From positions 18,332-82,331 of the IMG/VR virus record IMGVR_UViG_3300027708_000034: a DNA stretch of 64,000 bases; one strand, given 5' to 3'. Origin of the DNA: a virus. Taxonomy: Duplodnaviria > Heunggongvirae > Uroviricota > Caudoviricetes. Below are positions 1 through 33,131 of the stretch, one piece after another (positions within the stretch are counted from its first letter, which is position 1; the number at the start of each line of letters is the position of its first letter). The notes beneath the pieces were generated by a model. It worked only from the letters and a program-made list of their open reading frames with translations, had not been told where the DNA came from and did no database searches. The translations under genes were made by a program, and so were the position numbers.

Positions 1-312
1 CTACAAGATTACTGGTCCATTGAACAATGGCAAAAATGCATCGATAAACTGGATGAAGGTCACCACGATACAGTTGGTTGTCTATACAGAGAGTTTCCTT
101 TAAACCATTTTAGTGGTAATGTATATTGGGTAAAATCCAGTTTTATTAAAAAGTGTAATAAATTACCGCTATGTGATGCCAATCGAATTCCAAATGAACT
201 ATGGCCGGAAATGTGGGTCGGGGCTAATGGTGCAAAATTTTATAGTTTTCATGATACTTCACATAATCTTTACTATGTAGAGTATCCCCCGGATCGTTAT
301 AGAATCAAATAG
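1..312 (+). CDS. Hypothetical protein, 5'-truncated at the window edge (C-terminal ~103 aa, ends at TAG 310-312)
   Basis: Open frame 1 from the window start to a stop at 310-312. No recognisable motif. It is one of the few plus-strand genes. Confidence 0.35.
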   Translation, partial: LQDYWSIEQWQKCIDKLDEGHHDTVGCLYREFPLNHFSGNVYWVKSSFIKKCNKLPLCDANRIPNELWPEMWVGANGAKFYSFHDTSHNLYYVEYPPDRYRIK

Positions 313-14791: not shown

Positions 14792-16693
14792 TTATACAGT
14801 TTCCTTAGCCTCTGCGTCAACGACTCCATCAGCCGCATCCTTTTTAGCCTGTTCTTCAGCCTTCTTGGCTGCTTCCTCGGCTTGGTTTTTCTTAGCAGTG
14901 ACTGGGTTCATGGCTTGATAAAGTTTAGGAATAGTATCTTGGATGAGTTTTACATCATCGCCCGACATGGCATCCTCAAGCGCCTTGACCGCGTCTTCAG
15001 CAGTAGCACGTTCTTCTTCAGTGAGTTGGTCACTGTATTTTTCTAGATCCTCTTTGAATCCGTTCAATGTACCTTCTGCACGATTGCGTTCCTCAATCAA
15101 CTCGCGCTGCTTCTTATCTGCTTCAGCATTGAGTTCAGCATCTTGGACCATGCGATCGATTTCCTCTTTGGTCAATCCGCTGTCGGACTTGATAGTGATC
15201 TTGTTCTCTTTGCCTGTGCCTTTATCAGCTGCTTTGATATTCATGATACCGTTGGCATCGATATCTAGCGTGACTTCGATCTGTGGAACACCTTTGCGAG
15301 CAGGTGGGATGCCTTCTAATTTGAATTCGCCCAACAATTTATTATGCTGGACGAATTCACGCTCGCCTTGGAATACTTTGATGTCCACTGCAGATTGATT
15401 ATCTTCGGCTGTTGAGAACACTTGACTATGCTTGGTAGGAATAGTGGTATTCTTTTGAATCAACTTGGCCATCACCCCGCCCATGGTTTCGATACCAAGA
15501 CTCAATGGGGTAACGTCTAGCAATAGAACGTCTGTACGTCCACCACCTAGCACATCGCCTTGGATAGCAGCACCTGCGGCCACTGCTTCGTCTGGATTGA
15601 CGTCTTTGCGAGGAGCCTTGCCAAACAACTTCTCAACTGTTTCAACTACCTTAGGCATACGTGTCATACCACCGACAAGGATAACTTCGTCGATATCGCT
15701 GGCTGTGACTTTGGCATCTGCCATAGCTGTCTTGCATGGCTCGATACTGCGTTGGATCAGTTCGTCTACCAAACTTTCCAATTTAGCACGGGTCAACTTA
15801 ACGTTCATGTGTTTAGGACCTGATGCATCTGCTGTGATGTAAGGCAAGTTAACATCGGTCTGTGCTGAACTTGACAGTTCAATCTTGGCCTTTTCTGCTG
15901 CCTCTTTAAGACGTTGTAGTGCCAACATGTCTTTCTTGAGATCAACGCCGTTGTCCCGCTTGAATTCATCGACCAAGAAGTCCATGATACGTTGGTCAAA
16001 GTCTTCACCACCCAGGAATGTATCACCGTTGGTGCTTAGTACTTCGATTTGTTTCTCGCCATCAACATTGGCAATTTCGATGATGGATACGTCAAATGTA
16101 CCGCCACCCAAGTCATATACAGCAATCTTGCGATCACGCTTGTCTGCTTTATCAACACCATAGGCCAGTGCAGCAGCAGTAGGTTCGTTGATGATACGCA
16201 ACACTTCAAGTCCAGCGATCTTACCTGCATCTTTAGTTGCTTGACGTTGCTGGTCGTTGAAGTAGGCAGGAACTGTGATAACAGCCTGCGTGACTTCGTG
16301 TCCCAAATAGTCCTCAGCAGTCAGTTTCATCTTGCGAAGTACTTCAGCTGAAATCTGTGGTGGGGCAAGTTCTTGTTCGTTGGCCTTGACCCAAGCATCG
16401 CCATTACTGGCTTCGATGATTTTGTAGGGCATCAGATCGATGTCCTTCTGCACAGCCTGTTCTTTGAACTTACGTCCAATCAAACGCTTGGCTGCATAAA
16501 TTGTGTTTTTTGGATTGGTGATTGCTTGTCGTTTGGCACTTGCACCTACCAGAATTTCATCGCTAGCATATGCAATGATGCTGGGAGTAGTCCTCGCACC
16601 TTCGCTGTTTTCGATTACTTTGGGGATACCGTTTTCAATAACGGCTACGCATGAATTGGTTGTACCGAGGTCGATACCGATTACTTTACTCAT
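14792..16693 (-). CDS. dnaK: Molecular chaperone DnaK (bacterial-type Hsp70)
   Basis: N-terminus [31 protein letters not shown], and an acidic, lid-like C-terminus. Full length 633 aa. Confidence 0.95.
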
Positions 16694-18074: not shown

Positions 18075-18321
18075 TAATCATCTTACCAACATGTTCCACA
18101 GTGAGATCATTGTTGGGCACGATAGGAGCGTTCCACATCAAGGCCATCATCAATGCGTCCTTGTTGCTGTTAAAAACAAAGTCCATATGCTCGGTATCGA
18201 CACGGGTATGAAATCTATCACCAGGTAGGCCAAAGTATTCTACAGCCCATGCGCAGACTTCATTCCATTTTTGCTCATTATCGAATTCACGACCCCATGC
18301 TATGCGTACTGTGCTGCTCAT
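18067..18321 (-). CDS. Small protein, divergent relative of the TMFILRWS family (internal DFVFNSNKDALMMALMWNA)
   Basis: Motif-like segment F-x-F-x5-ALMMALMW followed by a C-terminal extension. Adjacent to the family. Confidence 0.4.
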   Translation of the reverse strand: MSSTVRIAWGREFDNEQKWNEVCAWAVEYFGLPGDRFHTRVDTEHMDFVFNSNKDALMMALMWNAPIVPNNDLTVEHVGKMINV

Positions 18322-18542
18322 GTCTGCTTCTTAGGATCTTCGATTTTAGCGTCGATACAGGTGCCTTCTAGTATGGTCATCTTTCCGGCATTGGCCTGCT
18401 CAGCAACTTCCAGCATATGTATTTTTTGACTGTCGATGCTGGCTCTGCATTGTGCCTCACTTCGATAAACTGTTTGGGCCTGCATAAAATTACAGTTGCC
18501 ATTCATACAGATGAACAGCACAGGTATAAAAATTTCAATCAT
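18318..18542 (-). CDS. Small hypothetical protein with hydrophobic N-terminus and four Cys
   Basis: ORF in an ATGA-overlap chain. IFIPVLFICMNGNC N-terminal hydrophobic segment. Confidence 0.4.
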   Translation of the reverse strand: MIEIFIPVLFICMNGNCNFMQAQTVYRSEAQCRASIDSQKIHMLEVAEQANAGKMTILEGTCIDAKIEDPKKQT

Positions 18543-18784
18543 AGTTCAACTCCAAAAAATTCTCTAAGGTGTTTCTGCACCTGTGATGCACCCTCGTAAC
18601 TCAAATCTGAATTTTCATCACGCAGGACATCACGCACACATTCGATAGCATGACCAACAATCAACTCGGCAAACTTTTCTAAGTCTGTTTCTCGACCATC
18701 CACAACAGGCACCATTGGATTGCTCATCAGTTGAGTAAATCTCAGCCCAGCCTGTTCGGCAAGTTCTTTAATTCGTTCGTTCAT
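18539..18784 (-). CDS. Small protein, MNERIKELAEQA/KFAELIV/FGVE family member (start taken at the internal MNERIKELAEQAG)
   Basis: Shares the N-terminal MNERIKELAEQA, central KFAELIVGHAIEC and C-terminal FFGVEL motifs with four paralogs at 30.3-31.5 kb. Confidence 0.5.
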   Translation of the reverse strand: MNERIKELAEQAGLRFTQLMSNPMVPVVDGRETDLEKFAELIVGHAIECVRDVLRDENSDLSYEGASQVQKHLREFFGVEL

Positions 18785-27369: not shown

Positions 27370-28260
27370 TTAGAAGCTATATTCTAAACCAACGCCATAG
27401 CGCGTGGTATCAGAGCTTGCATCTTCCAACAAGTAACGAGCCAATACTTTGGTATTTTTACCTATGTCATAGTTAAGACCCACGTTGTAGGCCTTGGTAG
27501 AACTGACTTCACCGTAGCTGGCCATTGCGGTCAATTTTGGCATCACTGTTTGAGTAACACCAACGCTTCTACCTGTGGTTGCTACACCGCTGACTGTGTC
27601 GTCGGAATATAGACCAAATACAGTTGTACCAGTCTTAGCCAGGGTGTACTTAACGCCATAGGCATTGGTTAGACTTGTTACACCGTTGTCAAAACGAGCA
27701 TATGTAAGTCCAACTGGACCAGCAGCGAAAACTAAACTGGCAGTATAAGAGTTTGGTGTACCAGCGACTTCACTGTTGCTGTATACATAGTTGGCTGTCA
27801 AACCATCTACGAATGTATTGGTAGATAGGAATATGCCATTGCTCAAACGTGTACCTTGATATGCATGGATAGTGCCTGCACTGGATCCAAACAAATCACC
27901 ACCCATGGCATCAAACGAGTCAAGTGCTTTGGTTAGGGAAGTCTTATCACGACCCAATCCCATTGTGCCATACTCATTCTTAAGTCCGATCAAGGCAATG
28001 CGATCGCCAATGGTGCTGGCGGTTGGTGTATCAATACCCACACCTACTTCGATTTGACCAAATGCTGATAGTCCATCACCGAGGTTGTCGCCTGCCTTGA
28101 AACCAAGACGGCTTTTGTCGTTGGTTAAAGAAGTAACAGCGGCTGCTGTGCCAACGGTGGAGGATTCCTCGTAGACACGGCCCATGCCGTAAACGGTGAC
28201 ATCGGCTTGGGCTAATCCCATGAATCCGATTAATGCTGCAAAGATTGCAAGTTTTTTCAT
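27370..28260 (-). CDS. Outer-membrane general porin (Gram-negative porin, Porin_4/OmpC-like beta-barrel)
   Basis: Signal peptide MKKLAIFAALIGFMGLAQA. Alternating amphipathic beta-strands. C-terminal ...YGVGLEYSF with terminal Phe (OMP sorting signal). DVTVYG start typical of neisserial/betaproteobacterial porins. Confidence 0.8.
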   Translation of the reverse strand: MKKLAIFAALIGFMGLAQADVTVYGMGRVYEESSTVGTAAAVTSLTNDKSRLGFKAGDNLGDGLSAFGQIEVGVGIDTPTASTIGDRIALIGLKNEYGTMGLGRDKTSLTKALDSFDAMGGDLFGSSAGTIHAYQGTRLSNGIFLSTNTFVDGLTANYVYSNSEVAGTPNSYTASLVFAAGPVGLTYARFDNGVTSLTNAYGVKYTLAKTGTTVFGLYSDDTVSGVATTGRSVGVTQTVMPKLTAMASYGEVSSTKAYNVGLNYDIGKNTKVLARYLLEDASSDTTRYGVGLEYSF

Positions 28261-28348: not shown

Positions 28349-28591
28349 TTAAAATTCTTTTAGTCGGGCAATGTCTTTATGTTTGACGATTATTATATGT
28401 TTAATTTCGTCGTTGTATTTAATGGGCAAGTCTAGGTGTATGGTTATTTCAGGACCGGAGTCATTGATTTTACGGTCATTTCCCACTGAACCGACAAAAG
28501 GAATCTCGTTCCAATAGCCAAATACTCTATCTCCTATAGAATACTTGGGCTTGTAGCCTTTTTCGTTAAAATAGTCTGCGAGGCTTGGCAT
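28349..28591 (-). CDS. Small hypothetical protein (start uncertain; the long N-terminal extension of the 145-aa ORF overlaps the GDSL gene and is probably not translated)
   Basis: Conserved-looking C-terminal 80 aa after the internal Met MPSLADYF. Confidence 0.3.
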   Translation of the reverse strand: MPSLADYFNEKGYKPKYSIGDRVFGYWNEIPFVGSVGNDRKINDSGPEITIHLDLPIKYNDEIKHIIIVKHKDIARLKEF

Positions 28592-29021
28592 CTTTGGTTT
28601 GCTCCGCAAGGTCCCTATATCCAGACCAACTGGGATGGATGTTGTCTTTTTGTACACGAGTGAAGGGTAAAACAATGTCACCATTTTCCGCGGCGACTGC
28701 CTTGACGAAACGTTGTATCCATTCAATATCCATACCACCGGCAGGGTTGTTGCCATGTGGCAAGATCCAAAACACATGCTCGGCATTGACTGCCTTACGT
28801 ATCTGTTGTAATTCGAAGATAGTTCTCACATTTTTATGATCATTGGAGCCTAAACTGATGATCACAGTTTTAGCCTCGGGCAATACACCCTGATCACTTT
28901 TTAGATATTGTTTGTTCCATTGCTGACTATTGATACCACCTTTGGCCATGACCGCACACTCAGGTCTAAACTGTTGTGTACCTACTGCTATACTATCACC
29001 TAAAATCAAACATTCAATCAT
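28566..29021 (-). CDS. SGNH/GDSL hydrolase family protein
   Basis: Block I GDSIAVG, block III GSNDH, block V DNIHP (DxxH). Confidence 0.65.
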   Translation of the reverse strand: MIECLILGDSIAVGTQQFRPECAVMAKGGINSQQWNKQYLKSDQGVLPEAKTVIISLGSNDHKNVRTIFELQQIRKAVNAEHVFWILPHGNNPAGGMDIEWIQRFVKAVAAENGDIVLPFTRVQKDNIHPSWSGYRDLAEQTKDAKPRRLF

Positions 29022-29417: not shown

Positions 29418-29642
29418 TCATTTCTCAATCTTCACATTTTTTCGAAAGTCGCAGGCTCTACAATGTGTTCCACTAAAGTATTCACCTTGTTTATTATGCC
29501 AAATGAATAGTTTAGTTGTCATCCAATGATCGCCAATCTTACATTGTTTGCGACGGTCGTCCCAGGTCATGTGATCCGCAAACACCAACCAACCCCATCC
29601 TGCCAGGGCCGCGATAAACAATACAGCACTAAAGTAGATCAT
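29418..29642 (-). CDS. Small membrane protein
   Basis: Hydrophobic segment YFSAVLFIAALAGWGWLVF. Coupled to the next gene by an ATGA overlap. Confidence 0.4.
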   Translation of the reverse strand: MIYFSAVLFIAALAGWGWLVFADHMTWDDRRKQCKIGDHWMTTKLFIWHNKQGEYFSGTHCRACDFRKNVKIEK

Positions 29643-30046
29643 AATATTTCTTCTTCCAAATATCGTTTCAATTCTTTGTCCAAGGGCTGTACTGTGTAAT
29701 TCTGTTTGAAAAATATTTCATAACTGTCACTGCCGTACTTGCCAATCCCATACAACACTGTAGCATCATCGCCGTCCCAAGTCAACCAGTCACGACTCAT
29801 GCCCACCAACCTCTTGTAGCGCACATTGGTCATGCCCAGGGGTTTGATAATGCTTTTGACAAATTCCTCATCGGCGGAGATCAATGCCTCGGGTGTGGGA
29901 AACCAATATAGGAATTCAGGCAAGGTGGTCTTGACTGGTTTGCGTCCGGTTTGGTTCAGCATGATCACGCCCACCATATGTTCCCAACTGTTCTGTATCT
30001 GTTGCTGTACCATTAGGTCATCGCGTAGGGGTTCGAAAAATTTCAT
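29639..30046 (-). CDS. Short HhH-GPD-like protein (possible DNA glycosylase)
   Basis: VGVIMLNQTGRKPVKTT...FPTPEAL...VLYGIGKYGSDSYEIF...QPLD: helix-hairpin-helix Gly-rich turn followed by a P-x-D about 18 aa later. Confidence 0.4.
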   Translation of the reverse strand: MKFFEPLRDDLMVQQQIQNSWEHMVGVIMLNQTGRKPVKTTLPEFLYWFPTPEALISADEEFVKSIIKPLGMTNVRYKRLVGMSRDWLTWDGDDATVLYGIGKYGSDSYEIFFKQNYTVQPLDKELKRYLEEEIL

Positions 30047-30321
30047 TTATAGCATTCCCAGGTGTTGGCATCATAGTTCCAGTGCCGTGTGTCGTAGAAT
30101 TCTAGTTCAATTTCATAACCAAATACTCCAAACATCAATCTAGCACCTGCATGGTCGCCTCGTAGTGTCCAGTGGAAATCTACATTAATGATATGACCAG
30201 TGCGGTATCCGTTAAACTCCCAGGCCTTGTTCTGGGAGATGAATCCCGACTTGTTCCACAGGATATCCCAGATCTTGGCGGACCTCCATGGCATGGCCAT
30301 GCTAAAGTTTAGATTGATCAC
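30043..30321 (-). CDS. Hypothetical protein (GTG start)
   Basis: ORF. Its start codon overlaps the stop of the downstream small paralog. Confidence 0.4.
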   Translation of the reverse strand: MINLNFSMAMPWRSAKIWDILWNKSGFISQNKAWEFNGYRTGHIINVDFHWTLRGDHAGARLMFGVFGYEIELEFYDTRHWNYDANTWECYK

Positions 30322-30479
30322 GATTCAACTCCGAAATGTTCTTTAATCCTACGGTTAATCTCCGTTAATACCTCTTCGGTAACATCTTTGACCTTGCCTG
30401 TTAGAACACAATGTTCGTGTTCCCAAGTGCAGATTGTTTTACTTTTTCCATCTTGCTCAACCACAACCGATAGTTTCAT
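30318..30479 (-). CDS. 53-aa protein with the C-terminal IKEHFGVES motif (short member of the FGVE family, not in the ORF track)
   Basis: Translates as MKLSVVVEQDGKSKTICTWEHEHCVLTGKVKDVTEEVLTEINRRIKEHFGVES. Shares the 17-nt 3' DNA repeat ttcaactccgaaatgtt with two paralogs. Confidence 0.4.
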   Translation of the reverse strand: MKLSVVVEQDGKSKTICTWEHEHCVLTGKVKDVTEEVLTEINRRIKEHFGVES

Positions 30480-30736
30480 TCTTCAACTCCGAAATGTTTT
30501 ATTACACGGACGATGTCTTTTTGTAAAAGATTAGCACCATTCAAATCTCCCTTGTCTAGTAGTTGCTTACGATCTTTTCCAAGAGTAAGTTCTAAACATT
30601 CCCTAACAATCAACTCGGCGAACTTTGGCAAAAAGATTTCGTTATAGAGACGTCTGTTTCTACGACTTTCATCTTCATATTCTGCCTTGATTTCTTCTTC
30701 AGCCTGTGACCAAAGTTCTTTAATTCGTTCGTTCAT
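30476..30736 (-). CDS. Small protein, MNERIKEL.../KFAELIV/FGVEE family member
   Basis: MNERIKELWSQAEEE...KFAELIVRECLE...HFGVEE. Confidence 0.55.
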   Translation of the reverse strand: MNERIKELWSQAEEEIKAEYEDESRRNRRLYNEIFLPKFAELIVRECLELTLGKDRKQLLDKGDLNGANLLQKDIVRVIKHFGVEE

Positions 30737-30996
30737 TCTTCAACTCCGAAAATGTTCTTAATCGTTTCACCGGCATCAAACATACCATCTTCCCAACCCA
30801 CTTGATAATCAGTGCTTTTGTCCCGACGCAATTCCTGTGTATCAAGAACCGTATATCGCAATTCTTCGAGACATTCCTTGACAATCAACTCGGCGAACTT
30901 TTCTCGGTCAAACACTTCAAAGGTAAGTGGATTGTAAGGTGTAGGGCCTTGAATAGAGGTAGCCTGCTCAGCAAGTTGTTTAATTCGTTCGTTCAT
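30733..30996 (-). CDS. Small protein, MNERIKQLAEQA/KFAELIV/FGVEE family member
   Basis: MNERIKQLAEQATS...KFAELIVKECLEE...IFGVEE. ATGA overlap with the previous member. Confidence 0.55.
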   Translation of the reverse strand: MNERIKQLAEQATSIQGPTPYNPLTFEVFDREKFAELIVKECLEELRYTVLDTQELRRDKSTDYQVGWEDGMFDAGETIKNIFGVEE

Positions 30997-31245
30997 TTAC
31001 ATTCCTTCACATTTAACGCCGCCGCCATTATCACCAATCACCTGCTGTGGAAATCCACGTTGACCGATAATGAATTTATAACCATCTATACAGCGTGATT
31101 CAGTCAAGCCATTAATGCCCATGCTAACATTGCTGGAACCGTTTTGAGATACAGCAAAAAAGCCAAAGACCGCTATAACAATAATAAAACCTATTGCTAT
31201 AACCATCATCAATTCAATTAAAGTAAATCCGTGATTAGTTTTCAT
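30997..31245 (-). CDS. Type IV pilin/pseudopilin-like protein (prepilin-type N-terminal cleavage/methylation domain), 82 aa
   Basis: MKTNHGFTLIELMMVIAIGFIIVIAVFGF: G^FTLIE with Glu at +5 and a hydrophobic alpha1 helix. Short C-terminal domain with one Cys pair. Confidence 0.6.
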   Translation of the reverse strand: MKTNHGFTLIELMMVIAIGFIIVIAVFGFFAVSQNGSSNVSMGINGLTESRCIDGYKFIIGQRGFPQQVIGDNGGGVKCEGM

Positions 31246-31481
31246 TCTTTAACTCCAAATTGGCGTGCGATTCTATATGCCACAATGCCTACCGCATTTG
31301 ATTCTTTAACAAGTTTGGCATTTACCAGTTGATCATCCCAATTTTTAGCAATATTCAAACAGTCTCGCACAATCAACTCGGCAAACTTACTTGCTGTAAA
31401 ATCGGAATAATCAATCCCCTCGGCACCAAAGCGAGCACCAGCCTTGTGTAGAAGGCTATCTATTAGTTGTTGATTCATCAT
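31242..31481 (-). CDS. Small protein, KFAELIV/FGVKE family member
   Basis: ...SKFAELIVRDCLNIA...RQFGVKE. First gene after the promoter at 31512-31540. Confidence 0.5.
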   Translation of the reverse strand: MMNQQLIDSLLHKAGARFGAEGIDYSDFTASKFAELIVRDCLNIAKNWDDQLVNAKLVKESNAVGIVAYRIARQFGVKE

Positions 31482-31511
31482 TCAACTCCAAAATCGCTTA
31501 GTTAAAACAAT

Positions 31512-31546
31512 ATTATACACAAAAAGAAGGGGCCTGTCAAGGCCCC
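31512..31546 (-). promoter_or_regulatory. Compact terminator-promoter module: the hairpin ggggcc-TTGACA-ggcccc terminates the SPFH gene, and its loop supplies the -35 of a TTGACA-N17-TATAAT promoter for the paralog/pilin cassette
   Basis: Minus-strand hairpin followed by TTCTTTTT. -35 in the loop (RC of 31535-31540). -10 TATAAT (RC of 31512-31517). Confidence 0.55.
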
Positions 31547-31564
31547 TGTGTTGTTTATCGACGA

Positions 31565-32422
31565 TTACTTACCAATGTTCATCAGGGTCTTTGTATCGCC
31601 GCCCAACATTGTGCTAGGCAATGCACCGTTCCACTTTTCAATCCACTGCAACTTGACATAGTTCTCACCACCGTTGCTTTGGATAGCAGCGGCTTGGATC
31701 GCGATGGCCTTGGCTTCACCATCTGCTTGTGCGATACGACTTGCAGCCTCAACTTTGATACGCTCCAGGTCTTGTTGAGCCTTGGCAGTTTGTTGCACAG
31801 AGATCACCTTGGCTTCGATGGCCTTTTGATATTCAGGACTGAATCCAAAATTCACCAAACTAATATTGCTCACCGTGATGTTGAACGGAGCCATCTTTTC
31901 CACCAAGTGCTGTAGAATTTCTGCACTGACCAAATCACGTTTGGTAACCAATTCTTCACTGGTGTAGTGACCAGTCACACTCTTGAACGCTTCGTTGATG
32001 CCAGGGCCAAGAACCTTTTCATCCACATTGAGACCGAACTCTTTATAGATATGTGGTACTTTGAGTGGATCTAGACGATAGTTAACCACGATGTCAGTAT
32101 GCACAACCTGCAGGTCTTTGGTACCTGCATTGGCACCTTTTAGTTCCGCCTTCTGTAGACGAACATCCACATCCTTGATTGAACTGATTGGATTCACAAA
32201 GTGAACACCTTCAGTCAAGGGCAAGGGATTGACTTCACCAAGTGTAACCTGTACACCAGTGTGTCCTGCACTGATCACAGTAAATGCTGAAACTCCAATT
32301 GATATGAGAATAATTGCTAGACCTGTAAGTACGCCCAACGCAATCTTTTTGAATTCTGACATAAAAATAATAGCACCTGCTACTAGCAAACCTACGATGA
32401 CACCCACAAGAATTGTGAACAT
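31565..32422 (-). CDS. SPFH/band-7 (prohibitin/HflC-like) membrane protein
   Basis: N-terminal TM helix. SPFH core (QVVHTDIVVNYRLDPLKVPHIYKEFG...) and a C-terminal coiled-coil alanine-rich region. Confidence 0.8.
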   Translation of the reverse strand: MFTILVGVIVGLLVAGAIIFMSEFKKIALGVLTGLAIILISIGVSAFTVISAGHTGVQVTLGEVNPLPLTEGVHFVNPISSIKDVDVRLQKAELKGANAGTKDLQVVHTDIVVNYRLDPLKVPHIYKEFGLNVDEKVLGPGINEAFKSVTGHYTSEELVTKRDLVSAEILQHLVEKMAPFNITVSNISLVNFGFSPEYQKAIEAKVISVQQTAKAQQDLERIKVEAASRIAQADGEAKAIAIQAAAIQSNGGENYVKLQWIEKWNGALPSTMLGGDTKTLMNIGK

Positions 32423-32445
32423 GATATTCCTTTGTTAAAAATTAA

Positions 32446-32479
32446 ATTATACACAAAAAGAAAGGGCCCGTCAAGGCCC
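32446..32479 (-). promoter_or_regulatory. Second compact terminator-promoter module (hairpin gggcc-TTGACG-ggccc, T-run, -10 TATAAT), near-identical in architecture to 31512-31546. Promoter for the SPFH gene.
   Basis: -35 in the loop (RC of 32469-32474), 17-nt spacer, -10 (RC of 32446-32451). Hairpin followed by TTTCTTTTT on the minus strand. Confidence 0.55.
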
Positions 32480-32574
32480 TTTGGTTGTTTTGATAATAAG
32501 GTAAGTCCTACCTCACCAAAGCCTAAGCGGCGATGGAATATAACTCGTCGTTTGCAGTTATGAAATTTGCTTGA

Positions 32575-32802
32575 TTAACGGTCATCGCCTACCGTGTTGC
32601 CGTCGCCACTATCTAGCCCAATCGATCCTGTGTCAGGCCCAACATAAAGAAACTTTGGAATAGGATTATTAAATCCTTTAAATCCTGTAAAACGATATCC
32701 TAGATTAGGAATATCCCAAAGTAAAGGTGCCCAACACACTCTTTTTACTGTGTCATCTTTGTCTACTACAACAAAATACTGTTTTACTTTTTCCAATTTC
32801 AT
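32575..32802 (-). CDS. Small hypothetical protein (ATG at 32802; the track shows a TTG start one codon upstream)
   Basis: ORF. Preceded by a GC-rich structured leader. Confidence 0.4.
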   Translation of the reverse strand: MKLEKVKQYFVVVDKDDTVKRVCWAPLLWDIPNLGYRFTGFKGFNNPIPKFLYVGPDTGSIGLDSGDGNTVGDDR

Positions 32803-32894
32803 CAAATTTCCTTATGGTGGACCTGCCGGGCACTGCCCCCGGGTCTTGGCCTCCTTCGTTTTGAAGGGATTACAACAATAACTCTTACTTATCT

Positions 32895-33131
32895 TCAATG
32901 TCTCACAGCAAACATACTGCTGATCATCGCTCTTACCAAAACTAAGTCACTTTCACATGTGACCACTATGGGTTCATCCAAATCTTCGTCATCTTCCCAT
33001 GCCTCTTTTGGAAACTGTAAAAAATCGAAAATAGTTCTAAAGGTCACAGTCCTACCTTGTGTGTAGGCCAATTCTATCACATCCACTATAGAATTTACTA
33101 TTTGTTGAGTTTTAAAATCCAAAGGAGTCAT
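32895..33131 (-). CDS. Small acidic hypothetical protein
   Basis: ORF only. Confidence 0.4.
   Translation of the reverse strand: MTPLDFKTQQIVNSIVDVIELAYTQGRTVTFRTIFDFLQFPKEAWEDDEDLDEPIVVTCESDLVLVRAMISSMFAVRH

Follow-up and report, generated by a model that had tools for sequence, protein, structure and literature searches.

The DNA considered here is a stretch of 64,000 nucleotides (nt) from an uncultured virus (positions 18,332 to 82,331 of IMG/VR record IMGVR_UViG_3300027708_000034; henceforth the window), and the genes in question are four small minus-strand genes within it: A, B and C, which lie close together in one cassette (30318-31481), and E, which stands apart. Their products are members of a family, very large and unnamed, of acidic proteins of ~80 amino acids (aa) with three predicted helices; it occurs in uncultured large lake myoviruses and is undescribed. 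The genes are mosaics in which three short blocks, conserved as DNA, alternate with two variable slots, and the last block appears to carry the ribosome-binding site of whatever gene follows. Taken as a whole, the reading that we propose, namely a mosaic family shuffled at its block joints and laid out in coupled arrays, seems to us probable (roughly 0.75). We refer to the family by a label coined here, MNERIKEL/KFAELIV/HFGVEE, and count as a member any protein of ~70-95 aa that matches the family profile over its full length.

A large family of small phage proteins

The source phage is an uncultured T4-like myovirus, as indicated by PHROG matches to a tail fibre, a baseplate wedge, a ribonucleotide reductase and virion proteins; a megablast search with the region found no close relative of the window among GenBank phages. 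The open reading frames (ORFs) listed in an initial annotation of the cassette are all present and all on the minus strand. A (31242-31481; 79 aa, or 78 aa if translation starts at 31478), B (30733-30996; 87 aa), C (30476-30736; 86 aa) and the single-copy E (18539-18784; 81 aa) recognize one another in pairwise blastp comparisons against all 658 stop-to-stop ORFs of the window (E values 1e-5 to 3e-8), and the motifs that had been noticed in them are not a product of chance. A family hidden Markov model (HMM) recovers the same four proteins with E values from 7e-17 to 3e-36 (A, 2.4e-29; B, 1.8e-25; C, 3.2e-36; E, 7e-17). Gene D (30318-30479; 53 aa), formerly counted as a fifth member, was rejected even as a truncated one: the HMM misses it at E ≤ 1e-3, and it aligns with C over the last 9 residues only (E = 4.8). 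It consists of an unrelated N-terminal part and a terminal ...IKEHFGVES block (30316-30348), and has a small family of its own (14 clusters, 52-65 aa). The paralogous family is thus real, with four members in the window instead of five, three of them in the cassette. The N-terminus of A (MMNQQLID...) is a diverged version of the N-terminal motif.

A profile built from the four window proteins matched more than 7,600 proteins, a lower bound since the candidate list was saturated; all were 75-95 aa long, metagenomic and unnamed. An exhaustive HMMER search of 1.84 billion cluster representatives returned 6,661 clusters (50% identity) at E ≤ 1e-3 and 727 at E ≤ 1e-10. In 80 IMG/VR loci we collected 304 unique family coding sequences, 1-15 per locus and up to 15 within 12 kb, mostly in head-to-tail arrays on one strand. 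The curated libraries have no counterpart: A, B, C and E match nothing at the curated cut-offs of Pfam or NCBIfam, their best PHROG match (PHROGs v4) has E ≥ 0.02, and the best match in a sequence profile search of the PDB has E = 0.045. A tblastn search of 50,697 GenBank phage records with E, B and a consensus-like member gave nothing even at E ≤ 10. A search with the motif strings found no paper in the literature collection used, and one on phage pilin-like genes and paralogous small ORFs of hyperplastic regions found nothing relevant. Of 185,579 species genomes, those with the family are all lake-metagenome bins whose taxonomy is inconsistent (e.g. Erken, LaPlata); these offer no clue to the host and are probably mis-binned phage contigs.

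Blocks, slots and the junction between genes

The genes follow a single plan, in which an N block (MNERIKELAEQA), a variable slot 1 of 8-42 aa, a central block (KFAELIVREC), a variable slot 2 of 15-50 aa and a C block (HFGVEE) succeed one another. The three blocks lie at 30961-30996, 30865-30904 and 30731-30764 in B, and at 30701-30736, 30590-30626 and 30474-30504 in C; in A, the central block is found at ~31353-31389 and the C block, which reads FGVKE, at 31240-31262. When 462 proteins were split at the blocks and the slots clustered at 60% identity, 280 slot-1 and 254 slot-2 clusters occurred in 391 combinations; in this sample, the ranking of hits by similarity to the modules of the window favors those modules. 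The slot-1 module of C was paired with 20 different slot-2 modules and the slot-2 module of A with 27 slot-1 modules; for 27 pairs of slot-1 modules, all four combinations with two slot-2 modules were found. Several homologues join the first half of one window protein to the second half of another: B to A in P0003, B to C in P0002, C to A in P0005, A to C in P0037, A to B in P0066 and E to B in P0064. In P0336, the N-terminal half of D is fused to a different slot and HFGVEE. These comparisons show that slots combine freely among genes and phages.

The blocks are conserved as DNA. Over the 304 genes, the consensus reads ATG AAC GAA CGA ATT AAA GAA CTT ... CAG GCT in the N block, GAA AAG TTC GCC GAG TTG ATT GTN CGG GAA TGT in the central block and CAT TTY GGA GTT GAA GAA TGA in the C block. 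At these positions, the choice among synonymous codons is far from that of the family at large: CGA for Arg (89% in the block versus 39% family-wide), CTT for Leu (72% versus 24%), AAG for Lys (85% versus 37%), GCC for Ala (83% versus 32%), GAG for Glu (85% versus 20%), TTG for Leu (84% versus 32%), GGA for Gly (94% versus 39%) and GTT for Val (91% versus 46%). Slot codons track background usage. Since the first loci had been seeded with the KFAELI peptide pattern, the test was repeated on the 58 family genes that were found only through a neighboring Band_7 gene; there, the frequencies inside and outside the blocks were 75% and 14% for CGA, 92% and 26% for GAG, 92% and 22% for TTG, and 93% and 27% for GGA. 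In 15,068 cross-contig pairs of genes with unrelated slots, identical residues in the blocks were encoded by identical codons in 75-84% of cases, against 45-50% expected from slot codon usage, a level that equals or exceeds the 72% seen in slot pairs at least 60% identical as protein. This measure, with its explicit expectation, was used because two-fold codons inflate the proportion of synonymous differences and make a Nei-Gojobori comparison of blocks and slots uninformative.

The same pattern emerges when the window is aligned with five relatives. The Band_7 gene next to the cassette is 81-88% identical to theirs as DNA; the cassette shares with them only islands of 23-36 nt, 90-100% identical, which coincide with the blocks (N block, 30996-30961 and 30736-30701; central block, 30904-30871 and 30626-30596; C block, 30764-30732, 30504-30476 and 30348-30324). 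Within 30300-31500, a repeat finder detected the central block three times and the gene-gene junction five times. We also noticed that a 10-mer, ATTAAAGAAC, is present both in the N block, at the codons for IKEL, and in the C block, at the codons for IKEH (e.g. at the start of B, 30961-30996, and at the end of D, 30324-30352), so that each junction between genes forms a short direct repeat with copies ~28 nt apart.

Comparison with individual loci places the breakpoints in the blocks. Window 19700-18753, at the E locus, is 93% identical to 1627-2574 of locus L082, with the alignment breaking off in the N block after the first 32 nt of the family gene; homology restarts inside the C block, at window 18558 and L082 4239 (window 18558-14701 against L082 4239-8092). 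The intervening DNA comprises one gene in the window (195 nt) and, in L082, six family genes and a further gene (1,665 nt). Chimeric genes on other contigs have modules that match those of the window exactly. In a gene of L086, nt 31-90 are those of B and nt 121-246 those of C, each at 100% identity; L084 contains a B+A gene and L082 an A-like+B gene. In all three chimeras the switch falls in the 30-nt bin that holds the central block. Thus, the indel breakpoints and chimera crossovers that can be deduced between phages are shown to fall in the blocks. Downstream of Band_7, relatives bear 0-4 family genes, and L099 is without the whole ~3 kb from 31564 to 28576; overall, with 0-15 copies per locus, related phages do expand and lose the family, a point that the initial annotation had raised. 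The D module seems to be on the move as well: it is 98.8-98.9% identical as DNA in L098 (6232-6401) and L091 (6853-6947) to window 30498-30329, although Band_7 is only 87-89% identical in these loci, which suggests a recent horizontal exchange of the module between phages. Contigs often stop at family genes (L081, L086), and the block repeats explain why assemblies of these phages break there.

A second property of the C block is that it seems to serve the gene that comes next. FG[VI] followed by 0-3 residues forms the end of 248 of the 304 family genes; GGA encodes the Gly in 237 of these and GTT the Val in 211. The junction is ATGA in 208 cases, TAATG in 14 and GTGA in 10, and this is where the next gene begins, be it of the family or not. 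Read as nucleotides, the block (CAT TTY GGA GTT GAA GA-ATG-A) spells GGAG, a 7-nt spacer and ATG-A. As a control, 555 other long ORFs from these loci were inspected: ATGA terminates only 19% of them, and GGAG stands at the corresponding position in 7%. Some 20 unrelated ORFs likewise end in (K)EHFGVEE, including D, a GIY-YIG-like ORF, a T5orf172/MUG113 ORF and membrane proteins. The C block thus contains a built-in, portable Shine-Dalgarno sequence and stop/start overlap for any following gene.

In the window cassette, ATGA overlaps join A to the pilin-like gene that follows it, B to C, and C to D, as had been reported; D is joined to the next gene by GTGA, and the pilin-like gene and B are adjacent (TAA-ATG) with no overlap. 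The 17-nt 3' ends said to be identical in three members turned out to be a 17-mer, TTCAACTCCGAAATGTT, present in two copies only, at the ends of C and D, the sequence of B being different. Nor do these ends betray a recent duplication, the interpretation originally given to them: the same 3' sequence occurs in 248 of the 304 family genes, on unrelated contigs, and is therefore a conserved ribosome-binding and coupling block. Translational coupling through an ATGA stop/start overlap, with the Shine-Dalgarno sequence inside the upstream gene, is a general feature of bacterial and phage operons, and the family resembles it in having GGAG 7 nt before an ATG that overlaps the TGA stop at 208 of the 248 gene ends. 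It differs in that the signal is fixed and portable within the coding sequence, dictates HFGVEE across thousands of divergent genes and also ends unrelated ones. Directly upstream of some arrays we observed nuclease-like ORFs, GIY-YIG-like or T5orf172/MUG113, that end in ...FGV(K/E) (L039 5618-6001, L011 5217-5732, L003 182-565 and L061 8670-9185).

As to the proteins, homologous slot pairs have a ratio of nonsynonymous to synonymous differences (pN/pS) of 0.22-0.24, and their synonymous divergence is substantial. It follows that the slots are translated and that purifying selection acts on them. The family is acidic (median isoelectric point 4.9, median net charge -6), and the single Cys present in about half of the proteins is the conserved one in KFAELIVxEC. 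An AlphaFold2 model of C (57 sequences; predicted local distance difference test, pLDDT, 80.5; predicted template modeling score, pTM, 0.63) has helices at 3-19, 28-61 and 65-82. Helix 1 contains the N block and the middle of helix 2 the central block, whose KFAELIV segment had been expected to be helical; helix 3 ends with the C block. From these positions, the conserved hydrophobic residues of the three blocks may pack as a core, leaving the slots as distal surface. A Foldseek search of the PDB with the model gave chance-level matches only; against BFVD, it gave only uncharacterized proteins of uncultured Caudovirales, probably family members.

The promoter, the pilin-like gene and their surroundings

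Between A and the Band_7/SPFH gene (31565-32422, minus strand), which served as a conserved anchor for finding orthologous loci, lies a GC-rich stem-loop with a T-run (AGGGGCCTTGACAGGCCCCT, 31528-31547, minus strand; 8-bp stem with 6 GC pairs, loop of 4, tail TCTTTTTGTG). A sigma-70-type promoter on the same strand (31512-31540) matches the consensus at 12 of 12 positions (TTGACA at 31540-31535, a 17-nt spacer and TATAAT at 31517-31512). Its TTGACA falls within the loop and stem of the hairpin, which bears out the proposal that a promoter is embedded in the preceding terminator. T4-like phages contain elements known as PeSLs (promoter-early stem-loops), in which a strong sigma-70 promoter is combined with a G/C stem-loop terminator and a Shine-Dalgarno sequence with start codon, and which mediate the shuffling of ORFan genes (Arbiol et al. 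2010, PMC2839356; Comeau et al. 2014, PMC4122927). The hairpin at 31528-31547 would terminate transcription of the upstream Band_7 gene and, at the same time, make up the stem-loop part of an element of PeSL-like type. A second, near-identical element (32446-32482) precedes Band_7 and has TTGACG-17-TATAAT (11 of 12 positions) at 32474-32446. The stems of both are 8-9 bp long and G/C-rich, with T-runs at 31547-31528 and 32482-32461, and each element is followed by a Shine-Dalgarno sequence and a start codon (GGAG at 31489-31486 before ATG 31481/31478; AAGGAA before ATG 32422). The two copies of ~45 nt (AACAAC..GGGCCTTGACRGGCCC..CTTTTTGTGTATAAT), the only exact copies in the 64-kb window, flank Band_7, which would thus itself be a PeSL-bounded cassette. 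The ~3-kb indel relative to L099 begins right after Band_7, that is, at the PeSL-like element.

The non-coding DNA upstream of A also contains an orphan copy of the C-block junction (TTTTGGAGTTGAATGATG, 31473-31495, minus strand; one of a repeat family of 5 copies), whose GGAG (31489-31486) is 7 nt before the second ATG, at 31478. This spacing, together with homologues that begin MNQ..., leads us to favor 31478 as the probable start of A. The description of the region as one promoter-to-terminator cassette ending at 30318 did not hold: no terminator-like site was seen between 31528 and 29611, and genes with overlapping stops and starts (30043-30321, 92 aa; 29639-30046, HhH-GPD glycosylase-like; 29418-29642, 74 aa; all minus strand) run on to at least 29418, so the transcription unit does not end at 30318. 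No RNA family was found inside the cassette with Rfam. Elsewhere, a promoter of the form TTGACN-16..18-TANAAT occurs within 110 nt upstream of only 6 of 299 family genes.

The pilin-like gene (30997-31245, minus strand; 82 aa) is inside the array, between A and B, and is not of the family. Its assignment was confirmed: it matches PF07963 (E = 2.5e-7; 30.4 bits versus a cut-off of 21.2) and TIGR02532 (25.8 versus 16.3), and the protein has G|FTLIE with Glu5, a hydrophobic N-terminal helix, two Cys near the C-terminus and a class III signal peptide. Its AlphaFold2 model (pLDDT 72, pTM 0.32) has a helix at 9-35 followed by a small beta-sheet, for which a fold search found no PDB match at E < 2. 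The corresponding family comprises 54 clusters of 77-108 aa, in which GFTLIE is invariant or nearly so (invariant G6 F7 T8 ... C52 C79); the two invariant Cys could form the usual disulfide. These phage "mini-pilins" share a ...NGMTESRCIDGYKFIIG...GKGVKC domain along with the two Cys and represent a distinct family. Like type IV pilins and type II pseudopilins, the window protein has the cleavage motif, Glu5, the hydrophobic helix and two conserved Cys; unlike them, it is only 82 aa long, with a small beta domain that has no structural match in the PDB, and is encoded by a lytic-type phage with no assembly genes nearby (neither these nor a prepilin peptidase gene were seen in the region examined).

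The family had been described as built around this gene. However, a pilin-like ORF is lacking in every one of the 80 other family loci. It is also missing from the seven closest relatives of the present locus (Band_7 89-95% identical), which contain 2-4 family genes each. Family members do not adjoin the pilin homologues of L087, L088 and L090; the only family gene of these three loci is that of L087, ~1.3 kb downstream. The pilin-like gene does lie downstream of Band_7/SPFH both in the window and in L089, where it follows Band_7 directly. A conserved linkage between pilin and family was accordingly rejected, homologues elsewhere being mostly without family neighbors and family loci without pilin. 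The gene is best read as a passenger spliced into the array, and the idea that the family modulates pili loses its only support.

Other genes of the surroundings deserve mention. E is flanked by a Metallophos gene on one side and a DUF1482-like gene on the other; the latter (18318-18542, minus strand; 74 aa) is joined to E by an ATGA overlap and has a sub-threshold match to Pfam DUF1482 (24.2 bits versus a cut-off of 25). Just upstream of the PeSL-like element of Band_7 lies a permuted (two-piece) transfer-messenger RNA (tmRNA) gene (32521-32892, minus strand; ARAGORN 32432-32907), which scores 122.6 bits with Rfam RF04321 (E = 1.9e-23) and 67.8 bits with alpha_tmRNA, and encodes the tag peptide ANDELYSIAA. 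Permuted tmRNA genes are unusual in phages, and this one could help to point to the host. The window also encodes a full-length DnaK/HSP70 homologue of 633 aa (14792-16693, minus strand; 66-68% identity to bacterial DnaK by tblastn); in the orthologous locus L082, the DnaK homologue matches Pfam HSP70 and is followed by an HSP20 gene. A 296-aa ORF (27370-28260, minus strand) has an ortholog (L081 2736-3311) annotated with Pfam Porin_1 (PF00267), which suggests a phage-encoded outer-membrane porin-like gene; a nearby ORF, 28566-29021, is weakly GDSL-lipase-like.

Origin and meaning of the mosaic

We propose that the blocks act as joints for homologous recombination, at which paralogues, and likewise co-infecting phages, undergo unequal crossing-over and gene conversion. 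Recombination at the blocks would shuffle the slots, make the arrays grow and shrink, and allow unrelated genes such as D and the pilin-like gene to be spliced in, in which case these would inherit a ribosome-binding site. Frequent exchange would in turn homogenize the blocks. If block residues form the hydrophobic core of a helical bundle, any combination of slots should still fold. The array would be transcribed early by the host sigma-70 RNA polymerase from the PeSL-like element and translated by coupling. In the last and weakest step, the proteins would be early cytoplasmic host-interaction factors whose specificity resides in the two slots. The predicted early expression, the many copies per array, the extreme diversity and the combination of a constant scaffold with variable surfaces all suggest binders involved in host takeover or anti-defence, a role that we advance tentatively, as one possibility for which the odds are somewhat against. 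Going further, one could envision a self-diversifying combinatorial library, in which selection keeps the blocks as joints, two specificity slots are reshuffled on a constant three-helix scaffold, foreign genes are spliced in with their ribosome-binding site, and the GIY-YIG/T5orf172 nucleases associated with arrays possibly exploit the joints, the outcome being a changing set of anti-host or anti-defence binders. This broader scheme is speculative, and we consider it a little less likely still.

Several points weigh against the mosaic, coupled-array reading. Recombination, coupling and expression are all deduced from sequence. The proposal that blocks form a core draws only on the conservation of hydrophobic residues and the positions of the modeled helices, and fold searches pointed to no binding partner, returning only uncharacterized phage proteins. 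The conservation of block codons could partly reflect constraint at the RNA level, namely translation initiation for the N block and the Shine-Dalgarno sequence for the C block. Some chimeras could in principle be artefacts of metagenome assembly at the shared repeats of 25-36 nt; the same chimeras, however, recur in many independent JGI and ENA assemblies with substitutions of their own (P0003-P0032).

This last concern can be extended to the mosaicism as a whole, which would then reflect short-read assemblies jumping between paralogues. That contigs often end at family genes and that the blocks are exact repeats of 23-36 nt would fit such an account, but blocks of this length are shorter than the final k-mers usual in assemblers, the same combinations are found in dozens of independent JGI, ENA and IMG/VR assemblies with their own point differences, the chimeras sit within long syntenic contigs (87 kb for L082, 36 kb for L084), and all ORFs are intact; we judge the explanation very improbable. 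Even more so, in our opinion, is the scenario of the initial annotation, in which a five-gene cassette, recently duplicated around the pilin-like gene, works with the pilin and encodes small regulators or modulators of pili or secretion. The position of a gene with a valid prepilin motif between A and B, coupled to A, is what recommended it. Yet it is largely refuted by the absence of co-occurrence described above, in the 80 other family loci, in the seven closest relatives and around the homologues of L087, L088 and L090; besides, D is not a member and the shared 3' sequence is family-wide.

Alternatively, the blocks might be conserved for the needs of the protein only (a core, a C-terminal peptide), their likeness as DNA reflecting descent, and recombination being incidental and rare. 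The conserved residues are indeed mostly hydrophobic and in predicted helices, and FGV is invariant in the protein. This account is nonetheless improbable given the synonymous codons of the blocks, which are far from family usage (GAG 92 versus 26%, CGA 75 versus 14%), and the codon identity between genes with unrelated slots, which reaches 0.75-0.84 versus 0.72 in recently diverged homologous slots. Moreover, modules 100% identical in nucleotides occur in different combinations, and unrelated proteins (D, the GIY-YIG-like ORF, membrane proteins) end in the C block too. Somewhat less improbable, if still unlikely, is that the blocks are cis-acting nucleic-acid signals: targets of homing-type nucleases that provoke gene conversion or, in the case of the C-block GGAG, an RNase site through which early mRNA is shut off, similar to that of RegB in T4. 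The conservation of the central block as nucleotides has no translational explanation, and two of the nuclease-like ORFs, the GIY-YIG ORF of L039 (E = 3.4e-5) and the T5orf172/MUG113 ORF of L061, adjoin arrays and end in an FGV junction; it is possible that such array-adjacent nucleases drive local gene conversion. On the other hand, nuclease ORFs are found in a minority of loci and are missing from the window cassette, no cleavage site can be inferred, and general homologous recombination of the T4 type suffices. This idea is compatible with shuffling at block joints, not exclusive of it.

Recombination at block joints has parallels in known systems. As with PeSLs, the window has consensus promoters fused to a G/C hairpin in a variable T4-like region and followed by a Shine-Dalgarno sequence and start, and short conserved linkers would mediate the insertion, deletion and replacement of small ORFan genes. 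The differences are that most joints of the family (the N, central and C blocks) are inside coding sequence instead of intergenic, so that gene halves are shuffled too, and that the window stem overlaps the -35 hexamer whereas the RB49 stem is described as lying between the hexamers or over the -10. In the gp38 adhesins of T-even phages, glycine-rich motifs (GRMs) separate hypervariable segments (HVSs; Trojet et al. 2011, PMC3157838). There, as proposed for the family, conserved motifs act as a structural core dividing hypervariable specificity segments, and exchanges take place at the motifs. The two systems have no kinship in sequence or fold, gp38 being a single-copy virion adhesin of known function and the present family a multi-copy array of small, helical, probably cytoplasmic early proteins whose last motif doubles as a ribosome-binding site. 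The "orphan" arrays of polymorphic toxins and contact-dependent inhibition systems exchange modules at conserved junction motifs such as VENN. They may resemble the family in their tandem variable modules joined to a conserved recombination sequence and in the combinatorial diversity that serves an arms race, and differ in being bacterial and in encoding large secreted toxins with immunity genes, with no homology to the family; there is no evidence that the proteins described here are toxins or immunity factors.

The novelty of the present case lies in the position of the joints, within the members of a multi-copy family of early proteins of small size, and in the last of them serving also as the ribosome-binding site of the gene that follows. 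Overall, the observations are better explained by a familiar type of phage genome plasticity that takes a new form here and is borne by a family both very large and unannotated. With at least 6,661 clusters and no entry in a curated library, this is among the larger unannotated phage protein families, and its three motifs provide a simple rule for spotting members. HFGVEE emerges as a protein motif at least partly dictated by an overlapping ribosome-binding signal, a circumstance that matters for reading C-terminal motifs and for building profiles. More generally, linker-mediated modular shuffling, known from intergenic PeSLs and gp38 adhesins, is extended to the inside of small early genes. 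Should the reading as a self-diversifying library prove true, it would be the phage counterpart of antigenic variation, or of the module exchange of polymorphic toxins, within a protein of ~80 aa. And if the slots are specificity determinants, the arrays would constitute a natural library of small binders directed against host proteins of abundant uncultured lake bacteria.

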